Below are positions 10,378 through 37,366 of a stretch of 44,869 nucleotides of DNA, piece after piece. Numbering within the stretch: position 1 is the first letter of the stretch; every line of letters begins with the position of its first letter. The notes below the pieces were generated by a model. It did not search any database. It was not told the DNA's origin and worked only from the letters and a program-made list of their open reading frames with translations. A program made the position numbers and the translations under genes. Source of the stretch: Stramenopiles sp. TOSAG23-3. Its lineage: Eukaryota. Where the stretch lies: assembly GCA_900128585.1 (NCBI GenBank), contig LT642172.1, positions 1-44,869 on the forward strand. The letters run 5' to 3'.

Positions 10378-13300
10378 TTAAAACAGATCTAACTCGGCAT
10401 TTTCCCAGTCCATAGACTTGAATTCTCCAAAAGTCAAATGTTCTTGGGTTGAACTTAATCCTTCTCTAAAATTTCCATTAGAAAATAATTCGAAGCTGCG
10501 GTACTCTCGGTCCTGTAGCATGACCCAAAGATGCAAATAAAAATTTGAGGCATCAACGTAATTCATACTCAACGCATGAATGTCGGCATTGTTGCGAACG
10601 GCATGTGGGCATCCACCAGGAATAAATACAAGGTCTCCTGGTTTTTGGATTGCGTAAAACATTGTCGCTTTTTGAAAAAGTGGGTGTTTTTTTAAGTCTG
10701 GATTGAACGAATCCACTTCAAACTTGGCTGTGTTCGATCGTGGGTACAAGTTGATAAAATCCTCCCTTGGAAAAAACCGCCATTCCTTTTCCCCGCTAAT
10801 CAAGTACAACCAAAAATTTGTGCCCCCGCTGTCAACATGAAGATCGCTTTGCGTTCCATTTGCCCCGATGAACAAACTCGGCCAACTGTGCTGGTAACCG
10901 GAGGGGAAAACGCGTTGAAAATAGTCTCCAGCAAAGTACTTTGGCATATTATACTCCTCATAAGGTGGCTCCCCAAATATTTTTGGGCAATGAGAGGTAA
11001 GTGTCCAATCGTGCAAGTAGTACTTTGCACGAGTTTCATTTTTGTTGAACGTATCGATGAACTCTTTTAAAAGCATGCTTTCTGCATCGACTAGCCCGCC
11101 CCAATTCGAAGTATTTTTGTCTCGCTTGACCAAATCCGCTTCCACTTCGCCGCATACTTTCTTGATATGGCTTAATGTCCAAGGCGTCTTCGTCATTGGC
11201 AAATTCTGAATGATTACGGGTCGCTTCTTTTTTGCGTACTCGTTGATGAACACGTCCATGGATAAGTCTTCCCAATCGTAACGGTCAATATGAACTTTTC
11301 TTACATTTTCCGAGTCGTACAATTCTTCCTTTTGGGCGATTTTTTTCTCACGGAGATCGTTCTCGAACTGCTCTATAAGTTCACCCACGGCAGTGTCCAA
11401 CGTTTCTACCATCTTCTTCGCATCGTCAACGGTGTAAACTTTTTCCCGCGAGCCTTCAGAGTGATTTTTAGAGTCCGTTTCGATTGCATTTCTCAGCAGG
11501 TCAACGCTTTTTTCGCCTTTTTTAAAAATTTCTCGTAGGGCTTCTGGAGACCTCACTAGTATATCGAACCCATGCCCGTCCTTCCACTGATCACGAATTG
11601 TCTTTAGAATGTCATTCACGCGTTCCCTAACAAATGTTGCTTCTTTTGGCGGCAGGCCAATTTTATGTTGATAGTCCATGTACTGGTACAGTTCAAAAAT
11701 TTTTGATTCATACTCGCTCAACAGTTCGAATTTCTCCATTTCTAGGTCACGCTTCTGCTCTGTTTTTGGTGTCTCGGTGTCATTGCCCTGTGCTGTTTTC
11801 AAAATTTCGGAAGTGTTGCTTGTGACATTTTTATTTTCGTCTTCTCCTTTGCTTGTGCTTTCTAAACCACTTGTGCTACTATTATCGCCCCCGCCTTGCC
11901 GGTTATCTTTCGCGTCGTTTAAGTAGTCTTGCAACGCCGACAAGAAATTAGCTTGACTTTCGTTAAATGAAAGATCATATTCGTCCATCATGTTCTCGTT
12001 CTTCATTGCCTTCATTACTTGGTCTATTCCGTGGCCTTTTTTATCGTCCATGAGTTGGAACTGCATGTCATCATTTGCTATAAGATTATTCACCAATACA
12101 ATACGGGGAAGGGCATCTTTCGTGCGTTTCACGCCAAATTGGTTTGCGAACTCTTTTCCGTCCGCCCACGCTAACTGGACTTTGTTGTACCCTAACCTAC
12201 TGGAAATTTTAAGCATTTCTGATTTTATTTTGGCATTCTCTTCAGTCTCTTGTTTGTGTAATAATGCCATCACTAACGGCTCGGGTTTATCAAGAAACAT
12301 ATGGCTGTTGTCAGGGGTCAACTGGTTCACAGAAGCACCGCTCATCATTGCAGAGAGCCAGACTTCCAGAACGTCATGTAACCTATTTGAAACGAGAAAG
12401 GCCGACGGCAAATTAAAGCTTTCAATGTACGAACCACTAGCATAAAACTGCACGGGCGACTTGCACAGCTCATCCGTCGACAAAGGATTTGCATCAAGCT
12501 CCAAGAAAGCCATCCACCCGTTTAACTCTTTTGAAACTGCACGGAACGCATCTTGCATTTTGGTAACATTGAGATTGAGGGACGCGTTCGTGTCCTTGAA
12601 ACACCCCACTGCTACGAACTTCTCCGTCGCAATAGTATCCAATGCTGTTGCTCGACCAATGGCACCACTTCGTTTGCGTGATGCTAGGTATCTATTCAAA
12701 TACTCTTCGATGTGGGTTTCGTCCACAACGCTTACGTATTCTTCCTTCATTTTGCCGTTGTGGAAAAGGATCATGATAAAGGGGAAAAAATTCGGCTTTC
12801 CAAATAAAAAAGGGGCGCCGTCGCTCGGGTCTTGCTCGATATCAGAAAATATCGGAACAACCCTCTCGGTCAAAAAAGCATGCCTTGATGAGTCAACGCT
12901 GTGAAATTTCACGACGTCGCCATATTCCCCCGTGCTTACCGTTTTGGCGGCAGCTTCAAATTGCGGCTGCAGGACTATGCTTGACTGGCTTCTTGGGTCA
13001 TAAAACAATACAAATGAGTACTCGCTTGCATTAATTGAAGCGTTGTAGTTTTGGGTCGTCAGCTCGTGAACGTGCGGGTTGCGGACCTCCACACGGGCGA
13101 TCTTGTTTCGCCTTTTGGGCTTCTTTTGGGCAAGTGCACTGGCTGGGGTTTCCTCGGGCTCGGGATCGTTGTCCTTCTCGCCACGCTTTGACTTGGGAAA
13201 GTCCTTGTCCAACAAATTCATCAACGTGGTCAGGTTGTATTTCTTGGCCGCGTATTCATCGCGAAGACTGTAAGTTGGGCCATCCGGTGGTGGTTTGCCC

Positions 13301-14361
13301 GATTGCATAAATGAAAAGTAAAACACTGGTCTGTTGCGTGGGCTCATATTTTCAGAGCCACGATGGTGTGTCCGTGAATTCATCATAACGACAGAACCGA
13401 ACGGAACTACCATTCTGACCGGTAGAGCTCGGTCCGCCATTACGCCAATCTCGTCTTCATCGGCAAAGTGATAATGGGTATGTGTTCTTGGAATTACGTC
13501 TAAGGCCGCCATGTTTTCGGCGACATCCGTCAGATAGCAAAATACGGACACAATCTGAGCGGTTTCCAGATCGTCAAACTGCTCCATTCCAGAATCAGGG
13601 TGCATATCTTGCTGTTTCGCTCCTGGAAAACTGATCAAAGATGAATATTCTACCAAGATTGGGTCTTTCCCAAGAATGTCTTCCAAAATACCCCCGGTGA
13701 ACCCCAGGGCAACCCGAAGAAACCTCACGTTATTTGCGTTGAAAACTTGCGGCAAATCCTTGCGAAAATCCGCCTCCATTATGTTGCCGAACATTTCCTC
13801 TTTTGCTGCCTGCGTCATGGCCAGCGCATCTTGGTATACAGCATCGCAAAGACTAGCCGGCATCACGTTCTGCAAGGCCACGACGCCCATGCTCCTTAGC
13901 TTGTTGACTCCGGTCTCCTTTGTATGGTGAGTCAACTTTCTTGCTTTTTTCTCCTCGGAAGAGACCTTCAGGCTCAACATATCCACGGTCGCGTCGAACG
14001 AATATTCGCGGTCGTCAGCAGTTTCGGAGTCCTTGAACAGCATCTTTGCGATTGAACCGTACGCAAATTGCTGCCCGACCCTGTAAAGCTGCTCGGGGCT
14101 AAGCTCGTCAAACACATCCATTGTTGTTTTGCCGCTTTTGGTGGGTAACGAGGCCAGCTGTTGGTTGTACGCGGACTCTAGTTCCACTGACGATTGCTGC
14201 AACAAATAATATGTCCCTACATTAAACAGAAGGGCGAACAATAGTACAGCCGTAGAAAATTGCAATGCACCATCTCTCCTACCCGCACTTTTTTTTGAAG
14301 AGCCCAACTTTGCCTGAGCTCGAGGCGCCTTCCCACTCTTTTTTGCCTTTGTTTTCGCCAT
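10378..14361 (-). CDS. Type II membrane fusion: PhyH-family 2OG-Fe(II) dioxygenase + redox-inactive thioredoxin/PDI-like domains + JmjC domain
   Basis: Basic N-terminus then TM (FSTAVLLFALLFNVGTYYLL). PhyH motifs PGAKQQDMHPD, ALDVIPRTH, GSVVMMNSRTHHRGSEN..RPVFYFSF. Trx-like VHELTTQNY...FVLFYDPRSQSS..LQPQFEAAA. JmjC WPSLFIGANGTQSDLHVD, GEKEWRFF, QKPGDLVFIPGGCPHAVRN. First ATG at 14361. Confidence 0.88.
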   Translation of the reverse strand: MAKTKAKKSGKAPRAQAKLGSSKKSAGRRDGALQFSTAVLLFALLFNVGTYYLLQQSSVELESAYNQQLASLPTKSGKTTMDVFDELSPEQLYRVGQQFAYGSIAKMLFKDSETADDREYSFDATVDMLSLKVSSEEKKARKLTHHTKETGVNKLRSMGVVALQNVMPASLCDAVYQDALAMTQAAKEEMFGNIMEADFRKDLPQVFNANNVRFLRVALGFTGGILEDILGKDPILVEYSSLISFPGAKQQDMHPDSGMEQFDDLETAQIVSVFCYLTDVAENMAALDVIPRTHTHYHFADEDEIGVMADRALPVRMVVPFGSVVMMNSRTHHRGSENMSPRNRPVFYFSFMQSGKPPPDGPTYSLRDEYAAKKYNLTTLMNLLDKDFPKSKRGEKDNDPEPEETPASALAQKKPKRRNKIARVEVRNPHVHELTTQNYNASINASEYSFVLFYDPRSQSSIVLQPQFEAAAKTVSTGEYGDVVKFHSVDSSRHAFLTERVVPIFSDIEQDPSDGAPFLFGKPNFFPFIMILFHNGKMKEEYVSVVDETHIEEYLNRYLASRKRSGAIGRATALDTIATEKFVAVGCFKDTNASLNLNVTKMQDAFRAVSKELNGWMAFLELDANPLSTDELCKSPVQFYASGSYIESFNLPSAFLVSNRLHDVLEVWLSAMMSGASVNQLTPDNSHMFLDKPEPLVMALLHKQETEENAKIKSEMLKISSRLGYNKVQLAWADGKEFANQFGVKRTKDALPRIVLVNNLIANDDMQFQLMDDKKGHGIDQVMKAMKNENMMDEYDLSFNESQANFLSALQDYLNDAKDNRQGGGDNSSTSGLESTSKGEDENKNVTSNTSEILKTAQGNDTETPKTEQKRDLEMEKFELLSEYESKIFELYQYMDYQHKIGLPPKEATFVRERVNDILKTIRDQWKDGHGFDILVRSPEALREIFKKGEKSVDLLRNAIETDSKNHSEGSREKVYTVDDAKKMVETLDTAVGELIEQFENDLREKKIAQKEELYDSENVRKVHIDRYDWEDLSMDVFINEYAKKKRPVIIQNLPMTKTPWTLSHIKKVCGEVEADLVKRDKNTSNWGGLVDAESMLLKEFIDTFNKNETRAKYYLHDWTLTSHCPKIFGEPPYEEYNMPKYFAGDYFQRVFPSGYQHSWPSLFIGANGTQSDLHVDSGGTNFWLYLISGEKEWRFFPREDFINLYPRSNTAKFEVDSFNPDLKKHPLFQKATMFYAIQKPGDLVFIPGGCPHAVRNNADIHALSMNYVDASNFYLHLWVMLQDREYRSFELFSNGNFREGLSSTQEHLTFGEFKSMDWENAELDLF

Positions 14362-15313
14362 TGCCACAACAGAGTTTGCCTCGTTGCACAAATAAATTCT
14401 TTTCTGGGAGCTAAATGAATACAGAGGGTAATAGGGACCTTTATTTGTACGGACACGTTTGTACGATACAGCAAACAAAAAATGAAATCTTAACTGCGTT
14501 TCGTTCGTTCGTACACAGTGGTTTACAAATATATGTACGTATAGCTATATGGAAGAAAGACTTACTATTGATTCAACTGCTGTTCAATCATTTCTTAAAG
14601 CAAGTATTCATACAAAAGGTATCGGTACAATTTCTCCCAAACAAATTATCAACGAACACACACACAAACAACAATAACGAACAAACAAAAATGTTGAAGA
14701 GAAGAAGAGAAGAAGAGAAGAAGAAGAAGAAAAGAAAGAAGAAGAGTGATGATGATGATGATATTTTAATTAATAGTCTATGCTGAATATATAATAATAA
14801 TGAAGCAAATATAAAATATTTTCGCTTTAATATTACACAGTGTAATAATCTACAATATACGACTATTATCTATCCCCAAAGCTAAATAAAAAAAAAAAGA
14901 TATTAATTTAAACTCTTTTTTTTTAGACGACTACCTCGTACTCGTAGTCTTCTAATAAATAGAGGCTGCGTAGGTTCTGAGTTCTGAAGATGGCGGATCG
15001 ATGTATTAACTTAACGAGGATAGGTCATACAAAACAAACGAAATAATTATTATATTATTATTTAAAATTGTGTATAATAATTGGAATAAGTACGAACATC
15101 ATTGATTGAGAAAAGTTCTTTCTTGCTTTTTGTTGCATTTTGTTGCATTCCGAATGCAACGCTCATTTTTTTCGTACTTGTTTTAGACGACTGACTAGTG
15201 TACTCTTTTTGACTTCCATGCAAGTTACTGCTTTCATGTAAAATGGTAGTTATTTCTTTTTTTATAACAGCCAATTTTCTTGTTTTTATTCTTTTTTTTT
15301 ACTCTTCTTTTAC

Positions 15314-16240
15314 TTACGAGTTACAATGTATTTTTTGCTTTTTGCACCATTTTATCCATTTTGTGAACTCGGGTTTGCTATAATCCTGGCTAAAAGTGTG
15401 CGAAATCATACTCCCCACACCCCATGGGGGATGTTTCATCAATTTTTTTTCTAATCTGTAAATGTGGCCGCGTAATATCTTGCTCATGTGAACGTCCACT
15501 GGTCCTTTGAGTGGCAGCGCATTTAGCAGCTTGTACTTCCCCCTTTGCGAAAGAATATATGCCGTTGTACCAGTTACAAAATCTGTTTGTTGAATATTGC
15601 CGTACCGTTCTCTAATGTGTTTTAGATAGTTTACAGAGGAGGAAGGACTTAAATTCAGCCATTCAATATTAGGATTCGTTTTCATGTCCAAAATGGCCTG
15701 CCTTAAATCAGCCACTCCCATTCCCTCCGCAAATTTTACGTCGTCCTCAATTATCACAGTGTAAGGATCAGCTTCATGGCGTTTCCATACACCGTAATGT
15801 GACAAGCTACACGCAGTTTCGGATTTTGATGAAACTCTTTTAAGGATCGGTGCATGTTGCTCCTTTAAATGCTTATACTCAAATCCATAATAATTTGAGT
15901 AATTTACATCATAAATTTTAGGGTCTACGTCCTTTAACGTCGTTCCGTCAACACCAGGCGCGCGTTTGAGTATAATGCCTGAGACGTTAAAGTTCTTCTT
16001 CAACGTGCTCCAACGATCTTTGCTTCTATCCATATTGACAGCATACACTGATACTTTTTCGTCCCATAAATTTGACATCTGCACTGCATCGTGCTGATCT
16101 TTGAAAGTTTTAAGAATCGCTGGTTGCTTCCCTGCCCCCATTTTATTGCTGACTTGATGACGGAGAAGTCTTTCGCCGTTAGCACGTAAGCCTTTTCCAG
16201 TTACAGAAAGCGAAGCAAGCAGCAAAAGTGTAAGGTACAT
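15314..16240 (-). CDS. Glycosyltransferase family 25
   Basis: N-terminal signal/anchor; VYAVNMDRSKDRW, PGVDG, ETACSLSHYGVWK, VIIEDDV, GTTAYILSQRG and PVD are characteristic GT25 motifs. Confidence 0.9.
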   Translation of the reverse strand: MYLTLLLLASLSVTGKGLRANGERLLRHQVSNKMGAGKQPAILKTFKDQHDAVQMSNLWDEKVSVYAVNMDRSKDRWSTLKKNFNVSGIILKRAPGVDGTTLKDVDPKIYDVNYSNYYGFEYKHLKEQHAPILKRVSSKSETACSLSHYGVWKRHEADPYTVIIEDDVKFAEGMGVADLRQAILDMKTNPNIEWLNLSPSSSVNYLKHIRERYGNIQQTDFVTGTTAYILSQRGKYKLLNALPLKGPVDVHMSKILRGHIYRLEKKLMKHPPWGVGSMISHTFSQDYSKPEFTKWIKWCKKQKIHCNS

Positions 16241-16614
16241 GAGACGGAGAACACGTTCACAATGCGAACCTGAAATATTTCGTAACGACGACGGGAGGGG
16301 GGTGTTTAGTTGATGTCCCCATCAACAATTCGGTTGGGGTGTTCCACGTCAGATTCAATTTTTTGATGCGCACGGGAGATTCTTGTATATACCAGACCTG
16401 AATTATTATATTATTGACTAAAAGCCATTCGGTGTACCGCCGGTGATGACTCTACCGTACTGAATGACGCCCTTGGTACTATATTATTATTACATCTTCT
16501 AGTGTCCAGTATCTTGCAGATTTTCTAAAGTGTCTATTATACGCTACGCTACTACAGTAAATTCAACAGAAACCAGGAATAAGGTGAAGAAGCCCAATGC
16601 CAAGTATTAATAAC

Positions 16615-16710
16615 GCACCGGTATTGGTACAGATGGTACGGTACCTGTACAGGTATAATATTAATACCCGGTATTATACCTAGGTACCTGGTATTATACC
16701 AGGTACAGGA
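16615..16710. repeat. GGTACC/GGTATTATACC palindromic intergenic element
   Basis: GGTACCTGGTATTATACCAGGTAC at 16683-16706 is identical to 22800-22823 and is preceded by further GTAC and GGTATTATACC units. Confidence 0.85.
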
Positions 16711-16816
16711 CAGGACATACAAAGTATAATACAATATAAATAATTGAATTTAAAAAAATAAAAACAACACAACAACAATAAAATAAATTGTTATTAGTCA
16801 AAACTCAGTGTTCAAC

Positions 16817-18133
16817 TTATTTAAATGACTTCATACACAGGTATAAGTAAATAGTCGTTACGGGAATATATTGTTTTTTGAAACAGAAATCAGAGGAAGC
16901 ATGCCTAAGAAAAATAGAAAGAAACTGTTTCGTTGAAATTACAAAAATATGCGCTTTCTCACGTTTTATACAATGATCGTACTGAAACTGGCAACAGTGA
17001 CGCAAACATCTAGGACCAAGTTGAAACTCAGTCCCGCACAGATCGTTGTTTTTACCATTAAAATTATGGACTCTATAAGGGAGCCTTTTTTTGTCAACGC
17101 TATGCACACTGCATGGCAGATCAACCAATTTGCATCCGCGTGCCTGAGCACACTTTCTATAATACTGCATTTCTGGCACATTACGTGAGCAGTGCGTATG
17201 CTGAGAACAGACAACCCTTGGATTGTAGTTCTGCGCGTGTTTATTCAAGTTTTCAAACGTAAGTGAGACTTTCTGCGACCTTAGCTGATTAATGACAGCA
17301 TGCAACTTCTCCAACTGCTTAGGATCTTTCTCGTGGATGGAGATTGGCCGTTCAGTCTTTTTATAACGGGTGGCAGCCTCTTTCAAAACTGCGTTACTAA
17401 AACGGAATCCGGCCGGAGGGTAACGTTGATGCTTCCATCCCTTGTTTAATTGCGTAATTGATTCATTCAGTTCAAACTGAATGCATGCCCCGACCCGTGA
17501 ATCGCTGTGCCACACAGTATTGTACTTGCGCCTACAGAGTGGAATATGTGGTACCATGAGCTCGACCATCCTACGGCTTAATAATATCCCTGCTCCTCCA
17601 ACAACAAAAGCAATAGTTCCCAACTTCTGGTCATTTGCTAGTGCAGGCTTTCCTATAATCCTGGGAACGTTAGGGTCCAATTCGCTGACCATCAACCTCA
17701 AGTTGTCTACGACGATCAACGTGTCGTCGTCAACGCATAAATACCAGTCTGCACGTGGATTATTCTTCCATGCAAGATAAAAACCAAACACCTGCAGATT
17801 GTTGCTTGAACCACTTGTTTCTTCGGGGGAAAATTTTTCTACCGTTGTCACGATCTCTGCGAGTGGCCCGTGCGCGCGCTCGAATGAGTATGCAAGGACG
17901 TTTCTGAATTCTTTGTGCCAACCTACGTGATTTTGGAAGAATCGCTCCCAAGACAATCCTCGCGAATGGTCGATAACCGTGAATATCTGGATAGCTGGAG
18001 CCACTGTAGAGGATCTTAGCGTAGAGCCCTTTTCGCGTATTCCAGTTGCTGACCAACGCAAATTTTGGTAAGTGTGGAATAACGCTAACACCGTTAAAAT
18101 AAGCAAGAGAGTAGGCACAATAACCGAACCCAT
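16817..18133 (-). CDS. GT31/Fringe-like glycosyltransferase with Cys-rich C-terminal extension
   Basis: Type II anchor (VIVPTLLLILTVLALF), ADWYLCVDDDTLIVVDNL (DxD), FVVGGAGILLSR, SDSRVGACI and PISIH. The last ~45 aa may be a non-conserved tail. Confidence 0.85.
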   Translation of the reverse strand: MGSVIVPTLLLILTVLALFHTYQNLRWSATGIREKGSTLRSSTVAPAIQIFTVIDHSRGLSWERFFQNHVGWHKEFRNVLAYSFERAHGPLAEIVTTVEKFSPEETSGSSNNLQVFGFYLAWKNNPRADWYLCVDDDTLIVVDNLRLMVSELDPNVPRIIGKPALANDQKLGTIAFVVGGAGILLSRRMVELMVPHIPLCRRKYNTVWHSDSRVGACIQFELNESITQLNKGWKHQRYPPAGFRFSNAVLKEAATRYKKTERPISIHEKDPKQLEKLHAVINQLRSQKVSLTFENLNKHAQNYNPRVVCSQHTHCSRNVPEMQYYRKCAQARGCKLVDLPCSVHSVDKKRLPYRVHNFNGKNNDLCGTEFQLGPRCLRHCCQFQYDHCIKREKAHIFVISTKQFLSIFLRHASSDFCFKKQYIPVTTIYLYLCMKSFK

Positions 18134-18890
18134 TTCAAATAGTGCTTACCCTTTTGATGGGCGTTCGGCAATGAACTGTAATGAACTGATGTTAAAAAGG
18201 ATTCCATGAATTTGTAAATACAGATGGTGTCCTTGGTAAATTTCAAATTTTCAATTGTCAAATGAAAACCCATCTAGTTCTTCTTCGTCTATAAAATAAG
18301 CTAACTGTTTATTCTTCATAATAAAATCATCATCTTCTCTTCTTTCTTCTTCTACTTTTTTTTTTTTTAATCATTATTATTCATTCTGTTCTTGTTGTAT
18401 GTAAGTAATATTAATATCAATTAAATAGTCGTCTACCAACACTAATAATAATAATAAATTCTAAATCAAAAATTAAAAATTAAAACAGAGTAAAGTATTA
18501 TTATGAGGCAACCGGTAATAAGGAACCTGGGTAACGGTACCAGTCCACCCCGACGGTTCCAGGTACGCTAATACTTGTACACTATCACTAAGTACAACAT
18601 CTAAAGTGGAACTGCTCTCCACAAGTGGTCGCCCCCCTTAACTTGACGTTTCCTGTTCGCTCAGCTCTCTACTGTAGTAAAAACTGTAAAACTCTCACAG
18701 CTCCTGAGTAAAGAGAGGAAGAAATTATTACTGTAATTAATCGGTATAAATAAATTCATACCGTAGTAGTGTCTCTCTCTATTTTAATATAATAACTGTA
18801 CCAGGTGTGGTGACACAAATGATAATAGTGTATTTTATTATTTATATCTATAATTTAAATAAATGGTATTAATAAAACATTTTTAAAAAA

Positions 18891-29931: not shown

Positions 29932-30432
29932 ACGGCACACAATCTGTCGTCTTCGAAGCAATTTTTTTGCTGTCGTTAGTTGTTGTTTGTTGTTTTTGAT
30001 GGGCGGAATGTGAATCTGCTGAATGAAAATCTATTAATACCAGGTCAGGTACCTTGTTGTAAGAAGTTTCAATTTGTCTTCTTCTATCTTCTTCGTCGAA
30101 GAAATATATTCTTTATTTTTATTTAATAGTATTATTAATATACTTATATTTCAATAGGGTTATTATATACTATAATATTATTGTAGTTGTATTTTATACA
30201 TACTATATATATACATAATAGATCCACACACTTTTTTCTTTTCTCTCCTCCTTCTTCTTTTTTTTTTTTTTTTTTTTTTTCATTCTTCTTCCCCAATTAT
30301 TTTCGGTTGAATGAAGATGTTCAATGTCATTCATGCTGGTGTGTTTTCTATGCAGATTTTTTATATAGACATACATAAAACGAACGGTCTATTCATAAAA
30401 TAAGTACAAATTTTGTAGAGATAAAAGGCGAG

Positions 30433-31287
30433 ATGTCAAGGGCGTTCCTTCGTATTTTGAGAAACCCAACCTCCGCGGAAGAATGGCGTGGTCAGAGGCG
30501 GCGGGTGGTGGAACGGGGGGATAGCATTCGAGTTTCATGCGTTGGACACGCCCAGGAAGACAAACGCATAGATGCCGGGCTGTTTGAAGACGACGTGGTC
30601 ATATTCGTATGCGGGGAGGGGCGAGGGTTACTTATGCCCGTGCTAGACGATTTCTGCGTTGGAATGGGTCTTCACGAAACGAAAGAGCTCGTGGTAACCC
30701 CGGCAGACGACGGGCACCCTCAACCGACCAGGGACCCCGCGCTTATTGTATCGTACCCCGTGGGCAGCGCAAAGGTAAAAGTTGGCATGACCGTACGAAT
30801 AAACCACGAGGGGGAGTATAGGCTCGCTACGGTAAATAGACTGCAAGGTGATACCGCGACGTTAGATATGAACGACCCGTTGGCAGGGCTCACCCTCGTG
30901 TACAACGTGAGCGTCGAAGCATTCGATGCGGACATCGACCGTTACAAGAATTTGTTCCCGCCGCCGGTTCACGTCCCGGACAAAACCTTCAATCTTGCGG
31001 AACTAAGTGTCTACAATGGAAAGGACAGCCGGCGCATTTTTATTGGCTGCCAAGGCTTGGTCTATGATGTAACCTCTGGCCGGAAGTTTTACGGCCCAGG
31101 GGGCTCGTACGGGTTCCTCGCCGGCTGCGATGCCACCGTAGCGCTTGCAAAGTTTTCAATGAATCCTAAATTTGTAAATATTCCTTGGGTATTGGACGAT
31201 TTTGACGAAGAAGAGATCAACGCCCTGGCAAATTACGTCCGTACGTTCACCAAAAAGTATCCCATCGTAGGGCGCGTGCAACGGTAA
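30433..31287 (+). CDS. SlyD-type FKBP domain fused to cytochrome b5-like heme/steroid-binding (MAPR) domain
   Basis: GMGLHETKELVVTP...RDPALI...KVGM...TATLDMNDPLAGLTLVYNVSV (SlyD-like), then FNLAELSVYNG...GLVYDVTSGRKFYGPGGSYGFLAGCDATVALAKFS...KKYPIVG (PGRMC/Dap1-like). Confidence 0.88.
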   Translation: MSRAFLRILRNPTSAEEWRGQRRRVVERGDSIRVSCVGHAQEDKRIDAGLFEDDVVIFVCGEGRGLLMPVLDDFCVGMGLHETKELVVTPADDGHPQPTRDPALIVSYPVGSAKVKVGMTVRINHEGEYRLATVNRLQGDTATLDMNDPLAGLTLVYNVSVEAFDADIDRYKNLFPPPVHVPDKTFNLAELSVYNGKDSRRIFIGCQGLVYDVTSGRKFYGPGGSYGFLAGCDATVALAKFSMNPKFVNIPWVLDDFDEEEINALANYVRTFTKKYPIVGRVQR

Positions 31288-31746
31288 ATATTACGAAAAA
31301 TCCACGATGGCAACCCAAAATTATTTTTTCATTCTCTTTTTCTTTAAAATTATAAAATAGTTTCTCGTCTCTTCCATTTTGACACTGAAAGAAAAAAAGA
31401 AGAGAAGCACGACGTGTCAGTCAGTCGTCGTCGTGGCTTATATTTTGTAGAAAACTATATACGAGTAAGTACAATATTAATATACTAAAAAAGGAAGTAT
31501 TAACGTACGAACCAATATAAATCTCTGCTGATTTTTTTATTTGGAAGAAGTTGTGGTTGGATGATGATAATACACATTTTGTACATTTTTATAGGGAAGG
31601 CAGGAAAATTTTTGCAATTTTAAAGTGTCAAATGTGATTTTAAATACAAAATTATTGTCAAGATTTTTTATTGATATTATGGTTGTGATTGGACTATGAA
31701 GAAACAGTTGTTATGTTGGCTTTAACAGGAAAAAAATAAGAAAACA

Positions 31747-34700
31747 ATGGACACCCTTACCGAGGATCTTAAGAAACTTGTAAAGGCGAAAGATTTGACT
31801 CTTGCCCAGGCAATAGAGTTGAGCAAGCAGGAGGCCCCCAAAGATGAATCTGCAAAACTTCCAACGTTACTGAGTCAGATGGATAACATAAATCCCCGAA
31901 GCATGTACGATGACCTCGTCGACATCCGAGGGGGTCCGCGCTGGGGGGGGGCTACGGTGGTCCATTTGGAACAAAAGGGCCGGGGCAGTTTGCTGCGCAC
32001 GACGGACGTCAACTTAGAACTTACTAAGGAGGGGAGCACTGAGGTGAAGGAGAAAACTAAGCCGAAAACAATCGCAGCACTCTGCGAAGCAGAAGAGGGA
32101 AACTTGACAGCAACGCGGTGGGTGCTTCTCTCCGTTTCAACCATAGAGAGAAATAATCGCACGAAGAAAACCGACTGGGCCGGTAAGAAAAGAAAAATGC
32201 CCAAGTGCGGAAAATGCAAATTAAAATTGAAGCGCTCCTCTTATGCGGGAAAGGGCTACAAGAATGGTTTCATCTGCAACACTTGTGGGGGGCGGTCCAG
32301 GAATGCTGCGGTTCAAACCGGTGCGCGTTGGTTCTGCCACAAGTGCCATTACGACGTGTGCTTTTCCTGCTGCCCTCGGTTTGCAAAGAGAAAGTACCGA
32401 CTCCCAACTAACCCTACACTGCCCGAGACCGGGAATGTGGACGTGCCCGTGAACCCCTCGGCCAAAAAATTATTGTCTCAGTTTCCCGGCACACACGGTG
32501 CAAATGATTTGGAAGAGTGCAGGATATACGTGTGCAGCCTGCGATCGAACGAGGTCGTCCATTTCAAGACCGGGGACCGCCGGTTGCTGGACTATATTTA
32601 CGAATCGAACGGGAACGAGGGGGAGAAATGCCCTGTCGCGTGGAACAAACTTGTAATTCAAGCCTTGCCGGGTCATTCCGTTCGCAACCTCAAGACACCG
32701 ATGCTGCGACATTTTTTTGCGGGTGGGACGAAGGACAAGACCAATCTTAGCATATCGCTTCTTCAAGTCTGGGTCCGTTTCCGCCCGGGCCTGTTCAGCA
32801 ACAAGGGGGGCTTAAGTGGGCCTACCATCAAGGAAGCTAAACCACTCATAGAATCCCGAGCACCAAAACATGCATTGCAAATCATGAAACAGGCCACGCT
32901 CGACGAAAATACGGTTGAAACGATGACCCTTCCTTCCGAATATTCGAAAGAAATGCAAAACCTTATGTTTTTGGAAACTCCTGGAGAGAACCCGTGTTTT
33001 CTGTGCAAAGGGACGGGTTTGCGGTACGTCGCAATGGAAACGGTGTACGGAAAACCGGAGCGATCTAGCCGGCACAGTGCTGCTGCCCTTTTCGCTGAAG
33101 CAGAGATAGAGGACCGTGACGATGGGGCGGGGACCGTCCGTGGGGTTGATTTTACTGACCTAGGCGAAAGGTTAAAAGCCGACCTCGAGTACCAGGAGGG
33201 TGGTGGCAAAAATGGGGAGGAGAAAGGTTCGTGGGGGAGTTCTCTCTACGATAAAGTAGCAACAGGAGCACGCTGGGCCACGGGATCTCATGAAGAAGAC
33301 ACCGATGGTAACGAGAGAAAAAGAGACGATGGCGGCGACAAAAGTATGGGGGATAGTGCCCGGAAACCGGCGGCAGACGACCACGATGAACCATTTAAAA
33401 CACACAGTGGGAACAAGGTGGCCCCGTCTCCTGAGGAGGTGCTACGGCACCAACGCTCAGAACAGTGCGAAGAATGCTGGGTGTGTATGGGCACGGGGAA
33501 AATGAACAACATGGCGACTGCCATGAAGCGTAACTTGGACAACGAAAAGGGGGGGGAGGAAGCGGACGAGTGCTTGATCTGCTACTGTGACCCTCAACAA
33601 TATGGCATTAGTACAGAATGCTCCCATTTTTTCTGCGAAACGTGTATCAAACTTCAGCTGGATACAATTATGAACTCGGGAAAGTTTCCTGGGTACTGCC
33701 CCATTTGTGAGGCCAATGCTCCGAAGGGGGAAGCGCCCCGATATGGAAAAATTACGGGAAAGGCCATGACGTTCTTGCAGCGGCATGGGATAGTGACGAA
33801 AGAGTTTCAGTTTCGTTTCATGCGCAAACAGACAGAGCAAGAAGGAAATAGCTTCTTTGCATGCCCTGGTAAATGCGGGAACTACTTGGTTGACGCGGAC
33901 CCTACATACGTTCTGAGATCTTCTGGGGAAGTTGCCACCAAGATCGAGAAATGCCCCTGTGGCCAAGGGGTTTGCCTGCAATGCCACGAGGCAGTCCCGG
34001 ACAAGAAAATTGAGAGCCACACTTGCCCGTCCGATAAGCGCTCGCGCGCCCATGACGATGCCGCGACGCTCGAGCTAATGAAAAAACTGGGGAAAAAGTG
34101 CCCTAACTGCAACATGTTTATCGTGAAGAACTCTGGGTGCGACGTGATGATGTGCGGTGACAAAGCCCACGGCGATCTGCGGAGGGCCATCAAGAACGGG
34201 GGCTGTGGACAAACCTTCTACTGGACAAGTTTGAAAACGTTTGAAGATACGATCACCAATTTGAATGGCAAGCGAGTGAGGTGCAATCCCCCCAAAAAAT
34301 ACAAGAACGAAATCCTGGCGTACAAGAAGAAAATTGGCATCAATATTTCCGCGGAGGAAGAAAAGGCCGCGAAAAAGTTCCTGGAATCAGGCAGCAGCGG
34401 GGCGCTGTTCAAAGGCTCGTACAAAGACAGGAAGAGGGTTGGGGGGGCATTGCTCTGGGACGCCTGTCTTCGGAACGACAGGCGCCTTGTTATGATGATG
34501 TTCCGCCGATATGACTATGATGAACACAAGGCTACGCGGGCGAGCGTGGACTATCTCGTTCCCGGGATGCCATACCCCAATTTTGGTGCAATCTTTTGGA
34601 CATTCTTCCACTTTCCATTTTATCCGATTTTTTTCTTAATCAGTGTGATCGGCTGCAAATCGAGGGTCGGGGTCTCCAGACGGGTGATGATTTGGGACGA

Positions 34701-36825
34701 CATGTGGTTTGCCCATTTGTTTCTCTACACGTTCATGTGGTGGTCCATGGTGTACTGGTTCGGTGGGTTTGCGTACCCGCTGGTTGACCACCAGTTCCCC
34801 ACGGGCCTTGTCTTCGGTATATTTTTCTGCTTGCCAGCATCTTCGTGGGCGGCTTTCTTGGGCATAACCGGTTCGTTCAACACTCCCTTGACGATTGCTG
34901 CCCGGCTGGGGCATGACGATATTGTACAACTCTTGCTGCTTCATGGAGCAGATGCGGACCGGGCTTCCTCCGCGGACATGACACCTGGACTGGCGGCGGC
35001 TGTGAACCCAAACTGTTACAGCAGAAGGCGGGTGGTCCGTGCACTTTTAAGGTACCGCCCTGGCGCCATGGACCGTGCGCGGAATACGTGCACCCCGAAT
35101 TCCCTGGCAATAGCTACCTGCAGAATACCGCACCGTTGCCGGGCTGCTGATGTCAAAAGACTCTTCAAGACTAGCCTCTGCTCATTGTTTGCCGTAGGTC
35201 TCGCCCTTGTGCTAGAGCTTACGACAGGCCATGGCCGTTGCAACACAGTTAAAGAAAACTTCTGCAATAACCGGAGCAACACAAAACCGTTCAAATTGGA
35301 CTTCGTTTACCCTCCCGACAGCAGCGACCGCCGCTTGTTTTCGCGCCATCGCGGCGATCATTGGCTCGAACCCGCTGTGGCGGTCTCCAAAAGGCCCGCT
35401 CATGGTTTGCGGCGCTTAATAGACCAAAAGTGCAGGGTTCGCTTTTACAACGTTGATGGGTGCACGGCGAATCAGGATTGCGAACGTGTAACGTTTCGAG
35501 CGAAAAAAAAAATCGAGGACGTACAGTGTTGTGGCTCGAGCGGTGAGTGCAAGGTGAGGGAAAACGGAGACCAATACTTTAGCATGGGAGAGTGGAATCT
35601 TCCCAACAGATGCGAGAAGGCTAAATTTGTCCGCGTCTCAAGCGGTTGTTCGATCAAACTAGACATTTATGACAAAGGAGTGAAGGAAGGTACTGCGATG
35701 CACACGGGTTTGGAGAATGAACAAAAAATCAAGCGGTTCCGAGTAGTCCCCCGACTGAAAACTGTGACGGTAATAGACAAAATAAATATTGATGGTTGGT
35801 TCAAAATAGAAAAACCAGAAAAGATTCGTTGCGCTGATCGTATTTGTGACGTTGTGAAAGATGCTGACAAGTGCTGCAGGGCAAAATGTTCGACCATTGC
35901 AGACCCCGCTACGTTCTGCAAGGGATCGGGGGAGAAATTAATCAAAAGTGCAGACTCGTTCCTGTGCGAAGGCCCCGTCTGTGACAGGAAGAGGGCAGGC
36001 GATATCAATCAGTGTTGTCAACGGCAAACTTGTGGTTCCTCTCTTTGGGATTATCCAAACTTGTGCAATGCAATTGGTCGCACTGGAATAAAAATTTCTC
36101 AAAAGCAAAGACGGTGTGCAGAATTTAGCTGCCTGAGCAAGGCCGACATTGAGACCTGTTGTGAGTCTACGTGCGGCCAGATTCCTGTGGCACACCAGGC
36201 ACAGTTTTGCAACAATTATGCGTATCGAAACAGGTATACGTTTGTTTACAAGAACTGGCTGCTATATCCACGCCCCGACATTGTTATTCCACGCCTTTAC
36301 AATTTTTACACGTTGGAGTTTGATGTCCTGTGGCGAGTCAAAAAGACTGCTCAAGAGAATAATTTAGACTTGCTCTTTCAGGTCCATGGCAGCGACAGGG
36401 ATTCATACTTTAACGGCCCACGTAAATCGTTCCCGCAGGTAAACGTAAACACTGTCACCGGGGAAGTCCTGATATATCATCAACAGCGAAGTTTTGGACC
36501 TCTCGTTCGTTTGGCGTTGGGTATAAAGAGCCGCATAAAATTGCGCTTGCAAGGCACATCATTCAAGGTTTGGCAAGACGATGCGTTGGCAATAAACGCC
36601 AACGTGAATCGCGTAGATCTTAACGACCGACGGCCCCACGGAGTCATGGCAATCTACAACAGCCGAACTTTGAATTGGGGGTACCGGAACAGAGTAAGAA
36701 TCGCTAATTTCACAATGAACGGCGGAGGACCACTGAAAGACGACGCGGACAAAATATTTTGTGGCGTCACTGAGAACGATCACATTTGCAAGGAAAAAAG
36801 GGATAGGGCTAAATGTTGCCGATAA
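31747..36825 (+). CDS. Multipass membrane RBR (RING-IBR-RING) E3 ubiquitin ligase with Zn fingers, ankyrin repeats and Cys-rich C-terminal region
   Basis: ZZ-like CNTC...WFCHKCHYDVCFSC; RING1 CLIC...CSHFFCETC...CPIC; IBR CPGKC...CPCGQGVCLQC...HTC; RING2 KKCPNCNMFIVKNSGCDVMMC; hydrophobic segments; NTPLTIAARLGHDDIVQLLLLHGAD ankyrin; C-terminal Cx..C..CC repeats. Confidence 0.88.
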   Translation: MDTLTEDLKKLVKAKDLTLAQAIELSKQEAPKDESAKLPTLLSQMDNINPRSMYDDLVDIRGGPRWGGATVVHLEQKGRGSLLRTTDVNLELTKEGSTEVKEKTKPKTIAALCEAEEGNLTATRWVLLSVSTIERNNRTKKTDWAGKKRKMPKCGKCKLKLKRSSYAGKGYKNGFICNTCGGRSRNAAVQTGARWFCHKCHYDVCFSCCPRFAKRKYRLPTNPTLPETGNVDVPVNPSAKKLLSQFPGTHGANDLEECRIYVCSLRSNEVVHFKTGDRRLLDYIYESNGNEGEKCPVAWNKLVIQALPGHSVRNLKTPMLRHFFAGGTKDKTNLSISLLQVWVRFRPGLFSNKGGLSGPTIKEAKPLIESRAPKHALQIMKQATLDENTVETMTLPSEYSKEMQNLMFLETPGENPCFLCKGTGLRYVAMETVYGKPERSSRHSAAALFAEAEIEDRDDGAGTVRGVDFTDLGERLKADLEYQEGGGKNGEEKGSWGSSLYDKVATGARWATGSHEEDTDGNERKRDDGGDKSMGDSARKPAADDHDEPFKTHSGNKVAPSPEEVLRHQRSEQCEECWVCMGTGKMNNMATAMKRNLDNEKGGEEADECLICYCDPQQYGISTECSHFFCETCIKLQLDTIMNSGKFPGYCPICEANAPKGEAPRYGKITGKAMTFLQRHGIVTKEFQFRFMRKQTEQEGNSFFACPGKCGNYLVDADPTYVLRSSGEVATKIEKCPCGQGVCLQCHEAVPDKKIESHTCPSDKRSRAHDDAATLELMKKLGKKCPNCNMFIVKNSGCDVMMCGDKAHGDLRRAIKNGGCGQTFYWTSLKTFEDTITNLNGKRVRCNPPKKYKNEILAYKKKIGINISAEEEKAAKKFLESGSSGALFKGSYKDRKRVGGALLWDACLRNDRRLVMMMFRRYDYDEHKATRASVDYLVPGMPYPNFGAIFWTFFHFPFYPIFFLISVIGCKSRVGVSRRVMIWDDMWFAHLFLYTFMWWSMVYWFGGFAYPLVDHQFPTGLVFGIFFCLPASSWAAFLGITGSFNTPLTIAARLGHDDIVQLLLLHGADADRASSADMTPGLAAAVNPNCYSRRRVVRALLRYRPGAMDRARNTCTPNSLAIATCRIPHRCRAADVKRLFKTSLCSLFAVGLALVLELTTGHGRCNTVKENFCNNRSNTKPFKLDFVYPPDSSDRRLFSRHRGDHWLEPAVAVSKRPAHGLRRLIDQKCRVRFYNVDGCTANQDCERVTFRAKKKIEDVQCCGSSGECKVRENGDQYFSMGEWNLPNRCEKAKFVRVSSGCSIKLDIYDKGVKEGTAMHTGLENEQKIKRFRVVPRLKTVTVIDKINIDGWFKIEKPEKIRCADRICDVVKDADKCCRAKCSTIADPATFCKGSGEKLIKSADSFLCEGPVCDRKRAGDINQCCQRQTCGSSLWDYPNLCNAIGRTGIKISQKQRRCAEFSCLSKADIETCCESTCGQIPVAHQAQFCNNYAYRNRYTFVYKNWLLYPRPDIVIPRLYNFYTLEFDVLWRVKKTAQENNLDLLFQVHGSDRDSYFNGPRKSFPQVNVNTVTGEVLIYHQQRSFGPLVRLALGIKSRIKLRLQGTSFKVWQDDALAINANVNRVDLNDRRPHGVMAIYNSRTLNWGYRNRVRIANFTMNGGGPLKDDADKIFCGVTENDHICKEKRDRAKCCR

Positions 36826-36977
36826 TCGTTTAACCGAAATTGTGTTTTGTTTGCTCTTTCTCCGTTTTAGAATATCCAACAACGTGTCAAGAACCGAACC
36901 CGCTGGTACCTGTATAATATTTCGGGTTCCTGGTAGTAGTTCGTTGTTGGTAGAAGAAAAAAAAAGAAAAAAATTAA

Positions 36978-37020: not shown

Positions 37021-37366
37021 NNNNNNNNNNNNNNNNNNNNNNNNNNNNNNNNNNNNNNNNNNNNNNNNNNNNNNNNNNNNNNNNNNNNNNNNNNNNNNNN
37101 NNNNNNNNNNNNNNNNNNNNNAATAAATAATAATTCAAAAAACTACCTTTTTTCTACAAATGGCGCCATCGGATTCGTAGACTACCTCCTTTCTTTCTTT
37201 TCTTTCTTATAGCTTTTTCACGTTCCCAACTTTTGTTTGCTTTCACTTTAGTAGTGGAATTGTCCTCTTCCACCCAATAGATGTGCATAATTACAACAAG
37301 GTTTTCAATTTGAAGAACAGAATTACCCGAGGAAACGCCCGCGGAACCTTCCCTGTTAGCGCCACA

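Follow-up and report, generated by a model that had tools for sequence, protein, structure and literature searches.

RING1-IBR-RING2 (RBR) ubiquitin ligases are autoinhibited enzymes that require a trigger. One of them, ANKIB1, is a soluble protein that carries N-terminal ankyrins, an RBR module of the Ariadne type and a UIM. In the passages devoted to them, RNF144A and RNF144B are described as an RBR followed by a C-terminal transmembrane domain and nothing more (PMC7458406), while the pertinent part of a review on the transmembrane RING proteins of humans names five RBRs that have hydrophobic regions and singles out the PA-TM-RING proteins as the only ones possessing an extracellular or luminal domain (PMC4021871). 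As far as these sections go, membrane RBRs possess anchors only and receptor-like E3 ligases are of the RING type. The relevant text of a survey of plant RBRs, which distinguishes 14 subfamilies, mentions neither 'transmembrane' nor 'ankyrin' (PMC2904391), and the corresponding parts of two other papers hold nothing on a layout combining an RBR with an ectodomain (PMC3940038, PMC4327156). Here we describe a gene of Stramenopiles sp. TOSAG23-3 located on contig LT642172.1 (assembly GCA_900128585.1), of which the window, the whole stretch of DNA analysed, covers positions 1 to 44,869 of the forward strand. The gene encodes a protein of 1692 amino acids (aa), which on balance we read as a polytopic membrane RBR E3 ligase of receptor-like build. 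An earlier note on this DNA had proposed a transmembrane sensor, and RBR, membrane segments and a large C-terminal region indeed stand in one polypeptide, both in the open reading frame (ORF) and in its orthologs, but a lineage without the tail also exists.

The closest membrane RBRs, RNF144A/B, RNF19A/B and RNF217, resemble the 1692-aa protein in that an RBR core is followed by hydrophobic segments, according to the portions of the reviews that treat them (PMC7458406, PMC4021871). The absence of a large ectodomain, which the earlier note had assumed for this whole group, is stated there for RNF144A/B, as an RBR plus anchor only (PMC7458406). However, the 1692-aa protein is not of the RNF144/19/217 type, since four hydrophobic segments, ankyrins arranged as a split stack and a 531-aa tail come after its RBR; it also differs by a large N-terminal domain and a RING2 with one zinc. 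A tree of this family alone nests the membrane clade within a family of soluble protist proteins. For the likely working of the protein, the best model is provided, by analogy, by RNF43/ZNRF3 and MEGF8/ATRN-MGRN1, in which an extracellular or luminal domain is tied across the membrane to a cytosolic E3, as proposed here (relevant parts of 10.1101/2020.05.25.113944 and PMC4021871). However, those systems use RING scaffolding chemistry and are either single-pass proteins with an N-terminal ectodomain and a signal peptide or two-protein complexes, whereas the 1692-aa protein is polytopic, lacks a signal peptide and has a predicted thioester-forming RBR in its N-terminal part and the ectodomain at its C-terminus. 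It is not a PA-TM-RING protein either: there is no N-terminal hydrophobic segment and no PA domain, and the RBR replaces the RING. ANKIB1 has the same inventory of ankyrins, RBR and UIM-like helix, but in the 1692-aa protein these come in the opposite order, membrane helices break up the ankyrins and a predicted ectodomain comes last. In the literature covered, largely without subscription papers or supplementary protist domain tables, we came across neither an RBR bearing an ectodomain nor a membrane ankyrin stack that is split. The protein and its relatives constitute a receptor-like RBR subfamily of marine protists that has apparently not been described before, within a wider family with a remodelled RING2.

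The 1692-aa protein is an RBR by its RING1, its IBR and its catalytic Cys. RING1 has the complete set of eight cross-brace zinc ligands (C609, C612, C625, H627, C630, C633, C651 and C654) and gave RING matches in both Pfam and PDB searches; Pfam IBR models match the relatives weakly. An AlphaFold model of residues 597-1177, built from a 20-row alignment, had a mean predicted local distance difference test score (pLDDT) of 70, mostly 68-93 over the RBR, and a predicted template modelling score (pTM) of 0.37. When this model was submitted to Foldseek, the top 30 rows were all RBR ligases (parkin, HOIP, ARIH1/2 and RNF216; best E 1.4e-5), and the matches extended over 230-350 columns of the RBR chains. 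The RING1-IBR-RING2 that the earlier note had placed at ~33570-34225 is therefore borne out by zinc ligands and fold, with a RING2 that is non-canonical. No Ubl, Ariadne, RWD or helicase domain was found by Pfam in the 1692-aa protein, and the same search of 12 relatives gave no match to the Ariadne, RWD or helicase accessory domains of the Ariadne, ARA54 and Helicase RBRs.

The fold and the position of the catalytic Cys are shared with parkin, HHARI/ARIH2, HOIP, RNF216 and HOIL-1, but the 1692-aa protein differs from all of them by a Cys-free segment in place of the second RING2 zinc site and by a loop insertion carrying a His at position +10 from the catalytic Cys. Cys798 (34138-34140) aligns to the catalytic Gly-Cys of parkin, and Val800 to the parkin His. 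Of 66 sequences considered, 63 had been picked by motif and three belong to the own genome; the set includes near-duplicates and fragments. The motif Gly-Cys-x-x-hydrophobic-x-Cys-Gly is present in 64 of them. A His at +2 occurs in 0/64 of these, whereas 60/64 have one at +10, which is His808 (34168-34170) in the 1692-aa protein. The second zinc site, canonically F-C-W-x-C, has retained neither Cys in any of the 50 full motifs. These two losses would fit a pseudo-ligase or a RING1-only scaffold, in which the altered RING2 forms no productive thioester and the module just binds E2 or ubiquitin. We consider this improbable, given that the Gly-Cys is invariant in RBR alignment A1, that few parts of the protein are better conserved than RING2 and that the +10 His is so widely retained. 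Moreover, RNF216 is active without a +2 His (PMC7458406), and HOIL-1, with a remodelled second zinc site, supplies its His from elsewhere (10.1101/2022.11.13.516300), as reported in the passages on these enzymes; a missing +2 His thus neither implies inactivity nor speaks against RBR membership. His808 is probably the catalytic base, a relocated His, and we are rather confident that the predicted RBR is enzymatically active.

A trivial explanation for such an unusual domain order would be that the assembly is chimeric here, or that the ORF merges two transcripts. The host assembly is of metagenome type (28 Mb, 7088 contigs), and the G+C content at third codon positions falls from ~0.60 to 0.52 in the tail. 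However, positions 31747-36825 form one stop-free frame without internal N, the closest run of N being at 37021-37121, and the expected chance of an open frame of 1692 codons at the local G+C content is ~1e-34. The single ORF described in the earlier note, with its elements in place, is accordingly confirmed. Its start motif reappears at the N-termini of the homologs P0004 and P0061. A near-identical protein (three substitutions) is encoded at full length on another contig from an independent assembly, in a cluster of 11, and an ortholog (P0003/L014; a cluster of nine members, each of 1678 aa) is collinear over the full length, tail included, with 75% identity in the RBR, 29-38% in the ankyrin and membrane part and 28-39% in the tail. 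The own genome holds one paralog with the same domain order, on contig C4056, and two soluble relatives; the search for paralogues of this layout that the earlier note had called for has thus produced both a paralog and an ortholog.

Sequencing runs were also considered: the gene is partly present in 20 of the 21 listed, 11 of these 20 being recorded as RNA. Contigs from four runs (three samples from three studies, the RNA status of one run being a guess) align to the gene without joints or indels. Single RNA-library contigs cover 33586-34427, 34440-34728, 34685-35132 and 34816-35468, and the last of them bridges H3, ankyrins, H4 and the tail, that is, the H4 junction; among the matches listed, a 12-base gap (34428-34439) separates the first two. 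Weighing against the single gene, no RNA contig in the four runs extends from the RBR to the tail or over the whole gene, and contigs of this kind cannot prove a single transcript. Neither the zero cover by RNA contigs upstream (31112-31567) nor the contigs of two studies ending at 36939 were counted as evidence, because gaps in such cover are no proof. Because a near-identical copy occurs in independent assemblies and orthologs are collinear, an assembly chimera, which the earlier note had named as a refuting possibility, is excluded for the 1692-aa protein, and the broader reading of a chimera or two transcripts is largely refuted by the orthologs; we regard it as very improbable.

The central question is which side of the membrane the two halves occupy. 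The hydrophobic segments reported earlier at ~34580-34875, the ankyrins and the further segment at ~35170-35220 were all recovered, as H1-H3, the ankyrins and H4 (Table 1), and the ambiguity that the earlier note had left over the number of crossings is narrowed in favour of an arrangement with the RBR and ankyrins in the cytosol and the tail outside (N-in/C-out). This arrangement, which we consider quite likely, is favoured by the modelled ankyrin stack, by relatives with two helices, by loop charges and by the C-type lectin and Hint domains in the tails of relatives. In the AlphaFold model, a helix pair upstream of the hydrophobic block (pLDDT 77-87) packs against the ankyrins downstream of the block (89-90), and residues 894-1125 superpose on ~120 consecutive residues of DARPins (98-104 aligned pairs, root-mean-square deviation 1.6-2.2 Å, Z ~15), so that the block would be a looped-out insertion returning to the same side. 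The insertion contains two hydrophobic segments in 4/14 relatives and three in 10/14. L008 and P0007 plainly have two and lack H1, and in L019 and P0073 a further stretch upstream stays below the threshold; P0007 comes from EukProt and is probably a gene-model fusion past the ankyrins. Summed over 14 proteins, the 15 residues before H2 include 37 Lys+Arg and 8 Asp+Glu, and the H2-H3 loops (110 residues) 7 and 16, respectively. Lys+Arg before H4 outnumber those after it in seven of nine proteins and are tied in two (the 1692-aa protein and P0005), one mis-delimited row having been dropped. From the split-ankyrin model, the two-helix relatives and the charge bias, we infer a re-entrant H1, an H2-H3 hairpin and an H4 that crosses and exports the tail. 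No signal peptide or hydrophobic segment was found in the first 945 residues. Before H4 lies a Cys-rich basic stretch, presumably palmitoylation-like.

Several results, however, weigh against this topology, and the tests of glycosylation sites and of the sequence of the first ankyrin gave it no support. H4 is the weakest segment of the 1692-aa protein (Goldman-Engelman-Steitz (GES) value 1.5, with five Lys+Arg before and five after). The membrane block has a pLDDT of 41-55 in a model of pTM 0.37. The first ankyrin repeat has no PDB match by sequence and an hhalign probability of 2.3%, and in a shuffle test at most 3/200 shuffles scored better in 3/16 proteins, with 15/200 for the 1692-aa protein; a complex prediction of ankyrin 1 with ankyrins 2-4, run without alignments, scored 0.24 against a mark of 0.34 and counts neither way. 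The tails contain no excess of N-glycosylation sequons (64 observed, 75.7 expected), and there is a slight excess in the N-terminal parts (57 versus 43; 4/500 shuffles). In P0005 and L015, H1 is a clean hydrophobic helix of 19-24 residues that could truly cross the membrane. Finally, F5/8 domains also occur in relatives free of membrane segments (P0093, P0101 and P0152), and N-terminally in L019; since they are fused to such relatives too, lectin-like and F5/8 domains do not prove an outside position.

If all three segments before ankyrin 2 cross, ankyrins 2-4 would be luminal and the tail cytosolic; if H4 does not cross, the RBR and tail would likewise lie on the same side, and no receptor-like layout would result. 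The prevalence of three segments, the weak H4, the poorly matched first repeat, the sequon counts and the cytosol-type F5/8 fusions within the family all speak for such a topology. However, it would invert the charge bias of both short loops, split the modelled ankyrin stack across the membrane, give two-segment and three-segment relatives opposite sidedness and leave the C-type lectin and Hint domains and the adjacent-Cys repeats on the cytosolic side. We therefore consider it unlikely and retain the N-in/C-out arrangement.

The C-terminus, which the earlier note had called Cys-rich over ~530 residues, does comprise 531 aa with 32 Cys, but it is not uniformly so, as aa 1501-1650 contain no Cys. 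Its tandem Cys repeats, probably disulfide-bonded stalk units, recur in the C4056 paralog and in L008, L014 and L015. A Cys-free module is inserted within the last repeat, and in the C4056 paralog an F5/8 domain stands at the equivalent point inside a Cys repeat. The module matches a cluster of DUF1961, 3-keto-disaccharide hydrolase and LamG in Atlas (0.87, a lead only) and is a probable beta-sandwich, ConA/LamG-like as a lead only. The tail gave no Pfam or PDB match, also when its alignment was used to search the PDB, and a search among proteins of 30-929 aa, longer ones lying outside it, gave 0 matches in 4478 candidates. A single-sequence AlphaFold model of residues 1162-1554 reached a pLDDT of 32 and was not used for a fold search.

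Twelve relatives extend as far as H4, and 10 of them carry tails of 260 to >2000 aa, several being cut by contig ends. By BLAST, the long tails form three classes; the third has no match in either of the others, and one weak module is common to the first and second. L015 contains C-type lectin domains (E 7.6e-23) and a Hint domain (E 3.9e-10), and P0005 gives a weak C-type lectin match. In L015 (2761-10779, + strand), the tail exceeds 2000 aa, includes the C-type lectin domains and has the Hint module last, at the contig edge; the presence of this module suggests that the ectodomain is autoprocessed. Members of the P0004 lineage stop 3-25 residues past H4, without a tail, and another gene follows 240 bp downstream; P0079 stops 78 residues past H4. 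L016 (4555-7674, + strand) is a tail-less member of the P0004 cluster whose close relative L015 has the longest tail.

These data bear on a less probable but serious alternative, which keeps the topology and denies that the tail is a signal input: the protein would be a membrane-anchored RBR of RNF144/RNF19-like character under cytosolic control by the UIM-like helix, the N-terminal domain and the ankyrins, and the tail would target, tether or retain it. The P0004 lineage, which keeps everything up to H4, counts against a receptor and argues for this alternative; the disparate tail classes and the greater conservation of the RBR compared with the tail also argue for the alternative. However, most relatives have kept a long tail, and that of the ortholog is collinear throughout, Cys positions included. 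We still favour, by a modest measure, the receptor-like build.

In the receptor-like build, the N-terminal ~940 residues (the N-terminal domain, a split zinc site and RING1-IBR-RING2) and the ankyrin stack would lie in the cytosol. The hydrophobic block between ankyrin repeats 1 and 2, a two-helix hairpin with an optional re-entrant helix, would pin the stack to the membrane, and H4 would cross once, exposing a modular ectodomain of Cys-repeat and lectin type on the surface or in a lumen. This ectodomain would bind a glycan or a protein partner. RING1 would take the ubiquitin-loaded E2, and ubiquitin would pass via Cys798 to the cytosolic tail of the partner or to the ligase itself. The mark could then lead to endocytosis and sorting, as RNF43/ZNRF3 and MEGF8-MGRN1 bring about with RING chemistry. 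Direct coupling of ligand to ubiquitination, the phagosomal setting suggested in the earlier note, the substrate class and control by the ligand are all inferred here. That ligand binding switches the enzyme on is less likely than not; alternatively, it may just select the substrate and the place. An equally tentative extension is that these proteins form a family of ligand-gated receptor ubiquitin ligases of marine protists with exchangeable lectin-type heads, in which the split ankyrin stack would release RBR autoinhibition upon binding or clustering and in which the one-zinc RING2 with His808 may, like HOIL-1, ubiquitinate non-lysine or non-protein acceptors.

To situate the subfamily, a FastTree phylogeny of the RBR core was computed from 48 of the 66 sequences (18 partial or duplicate ones were dropped) and rooted at the midpoint; it contains this family alone, without reference subfamilies. 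All 13 membrane-ankyrin members included form one clade, together with four fragments whose end is unknown (support 0.76; 0.94 for its main part), nested among soluble relatives with WWE, UBA, EF-hand, F5/8 or ricin domains. Seven relatives (P0093, P0101, P0144, P0152, P0143, P0111 and P0011) fuse the RBR to F5/8, ricin-B, LamG-like or peptidoglycan-binding domains, have no membrane segment after RING2 and are candidate cytosolic glycan-sensing ligases. P0092 and P0145 have, after the RBR, another kind of hydrophobic, Cys-rich C-terminal domain, which gives the family a second way to membranes. Another soluble relative, L009 (G000:C6467, 2769-5828, + strand), has an extra N-terminal RING2-like module, a WWE domain and an insertion of ~100 aa between RING1 and IBR; P0093 also starts with an extra RING2-like module.

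Upstream of RING1, the N-terminal domain common to the membrane subfamily gave no significant Pfam or PDB-sequence match and no Atlas match at >=0.9, and a PDB sequence search with its alignment found nothing. Its C/D-x-G-x-W-x-L motif looks like that of fibrinogen-like domains, a likeness for which no support was found. The ZZ-like finger proposed in the earlier note is present as an insertion, but it is weak (Pfam E 0.44) and local, occurring in 2/6 aligned N-terminal domains, those of the 1692-aa protein and its ortholog only; Atlas matches to C1-like domains (0.82) are a lead only. In the UIM-like helix, the residue that we take to be the consensus Ser is Asn in the homologs. The two CxxCxGTG motifs, which we liken to the DnaJ finger, probably make up a single split zinc site just before RING1, and they occur in soluble relatives too.

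Table 1. Predicted features of the 1692-aa protein (positions in the window)
Feature	Position	Strand	Basis
Whole single-frame ORF	31747..36825	+	1692 aa; neither signal peptide nor hydrophobic segment in the first 945 residues
UIM-like helix (weak; possible ubiquitin-binding site)	31795..31836	+	Pfam UIM E 0.22, below cutoff
Conserved N-terminal domain, fold unknown, common to membrane subfamily	31900..32829	+	Alignments
ZZ/C1-like zinc finger inserted in N-terminal domain	32206..32376	+	Pfam ZZ E 0.44; alignment
Two CxxCxGTG motifs (aa 417-424 and 577-585) flanking a variable low-complexity linker	32995..33501	+	Alignment consensus
RING1 (C3HC4), predicted E2-binding finger	33571..33714	+	Sequence; Pfam zf-RING E 2.7e-5; model pLDDT 83-93
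IBR, 8 zinc ligands	33856..34026	+	Sequence and alignment; aa 706-760, ligands conserved
Non-canonical RING2	34099..34224	+	Alignment to parkin; family counts; first zinc site kept, second lost
Degenerate first ankyrin-like helix pair, 5' of hydrophobic block	34426..34554	+	AlphaFold model and structural alignment
H1, Pro-kinked hydrophobic segment, putatively re-entrant, then Cys and basic loop	34582..34662	+	Two internal Pro
H2 and H3, predicted transmembrane hairpin with short non-basic outer loop	34708..34872	+	Hydrophobicity and charge counts
Ankyrin repeats 2-4, last ones degenerate	34879..35121	+	Pfam Ank E 3.5e-6; alignment; structural alignment
H4, helix presumed to carry the tail outside	35167..35229	+	Hydrophobicity; GES 1.5
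Predicted ectodomain, 531 aa, 32 Cys	35230..36822	+	30% identity to ortholog tail over 498 aa, E 3e-43
Tandem Cys repeats, C-x4-C-x8/10-CC then C-x9-C	35830..36216	+	Sequence
Cys-free module, ~170 aa, inserted within last Cys repeat	36214..36726	+	Atlas 0.87

Three other loci of the window deserve mention. Directly upstream of the RBR ORF, 30379-31287 (+ strand) joins a domain resembling FKBP-type isomerases (E 0.008) to a heme/steroid-binding domain of the cytochrome b5-like type (E 3.7e-9). On the opposite strand, a frame of 1388 aa (10378-14544) combines PhyH dioxygenase, thioredoxin-like and JmjC/Cupin_8 hydroxylase domains, and 15314-18145 contains an adjacent pair of glycosyltransferase genes, GT25 and Fringe-like. 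A viral origin of the RBR gene was considered and dropped because its neighbours are eukaryotic nuclear genes (proteasome alpha-3, SSRP1 and calpain); none of 22 viral-contig candidates proved to be a relative.

Two observations stand on their own, namely a protist RBR family (the 64 motif-bearing sequences) whose RING2 lacks one zinc and whose catalytic His has probably moved, and an ankyrin stack that is, in the model, split by a membrane hairpin. A single chain joining an RBR to a variable ectodomain would, if true, represent a new wiring of an outside cue to the ubiquitin thioester of an E3, and it would be a natural scaffold for engineered surface-sensing ligases. Such a layout could link contacts at the surface to ubiquitin marks and, if ligand gating is true, these proteins would be a ubiquitin counterpart of the receptor kinase.

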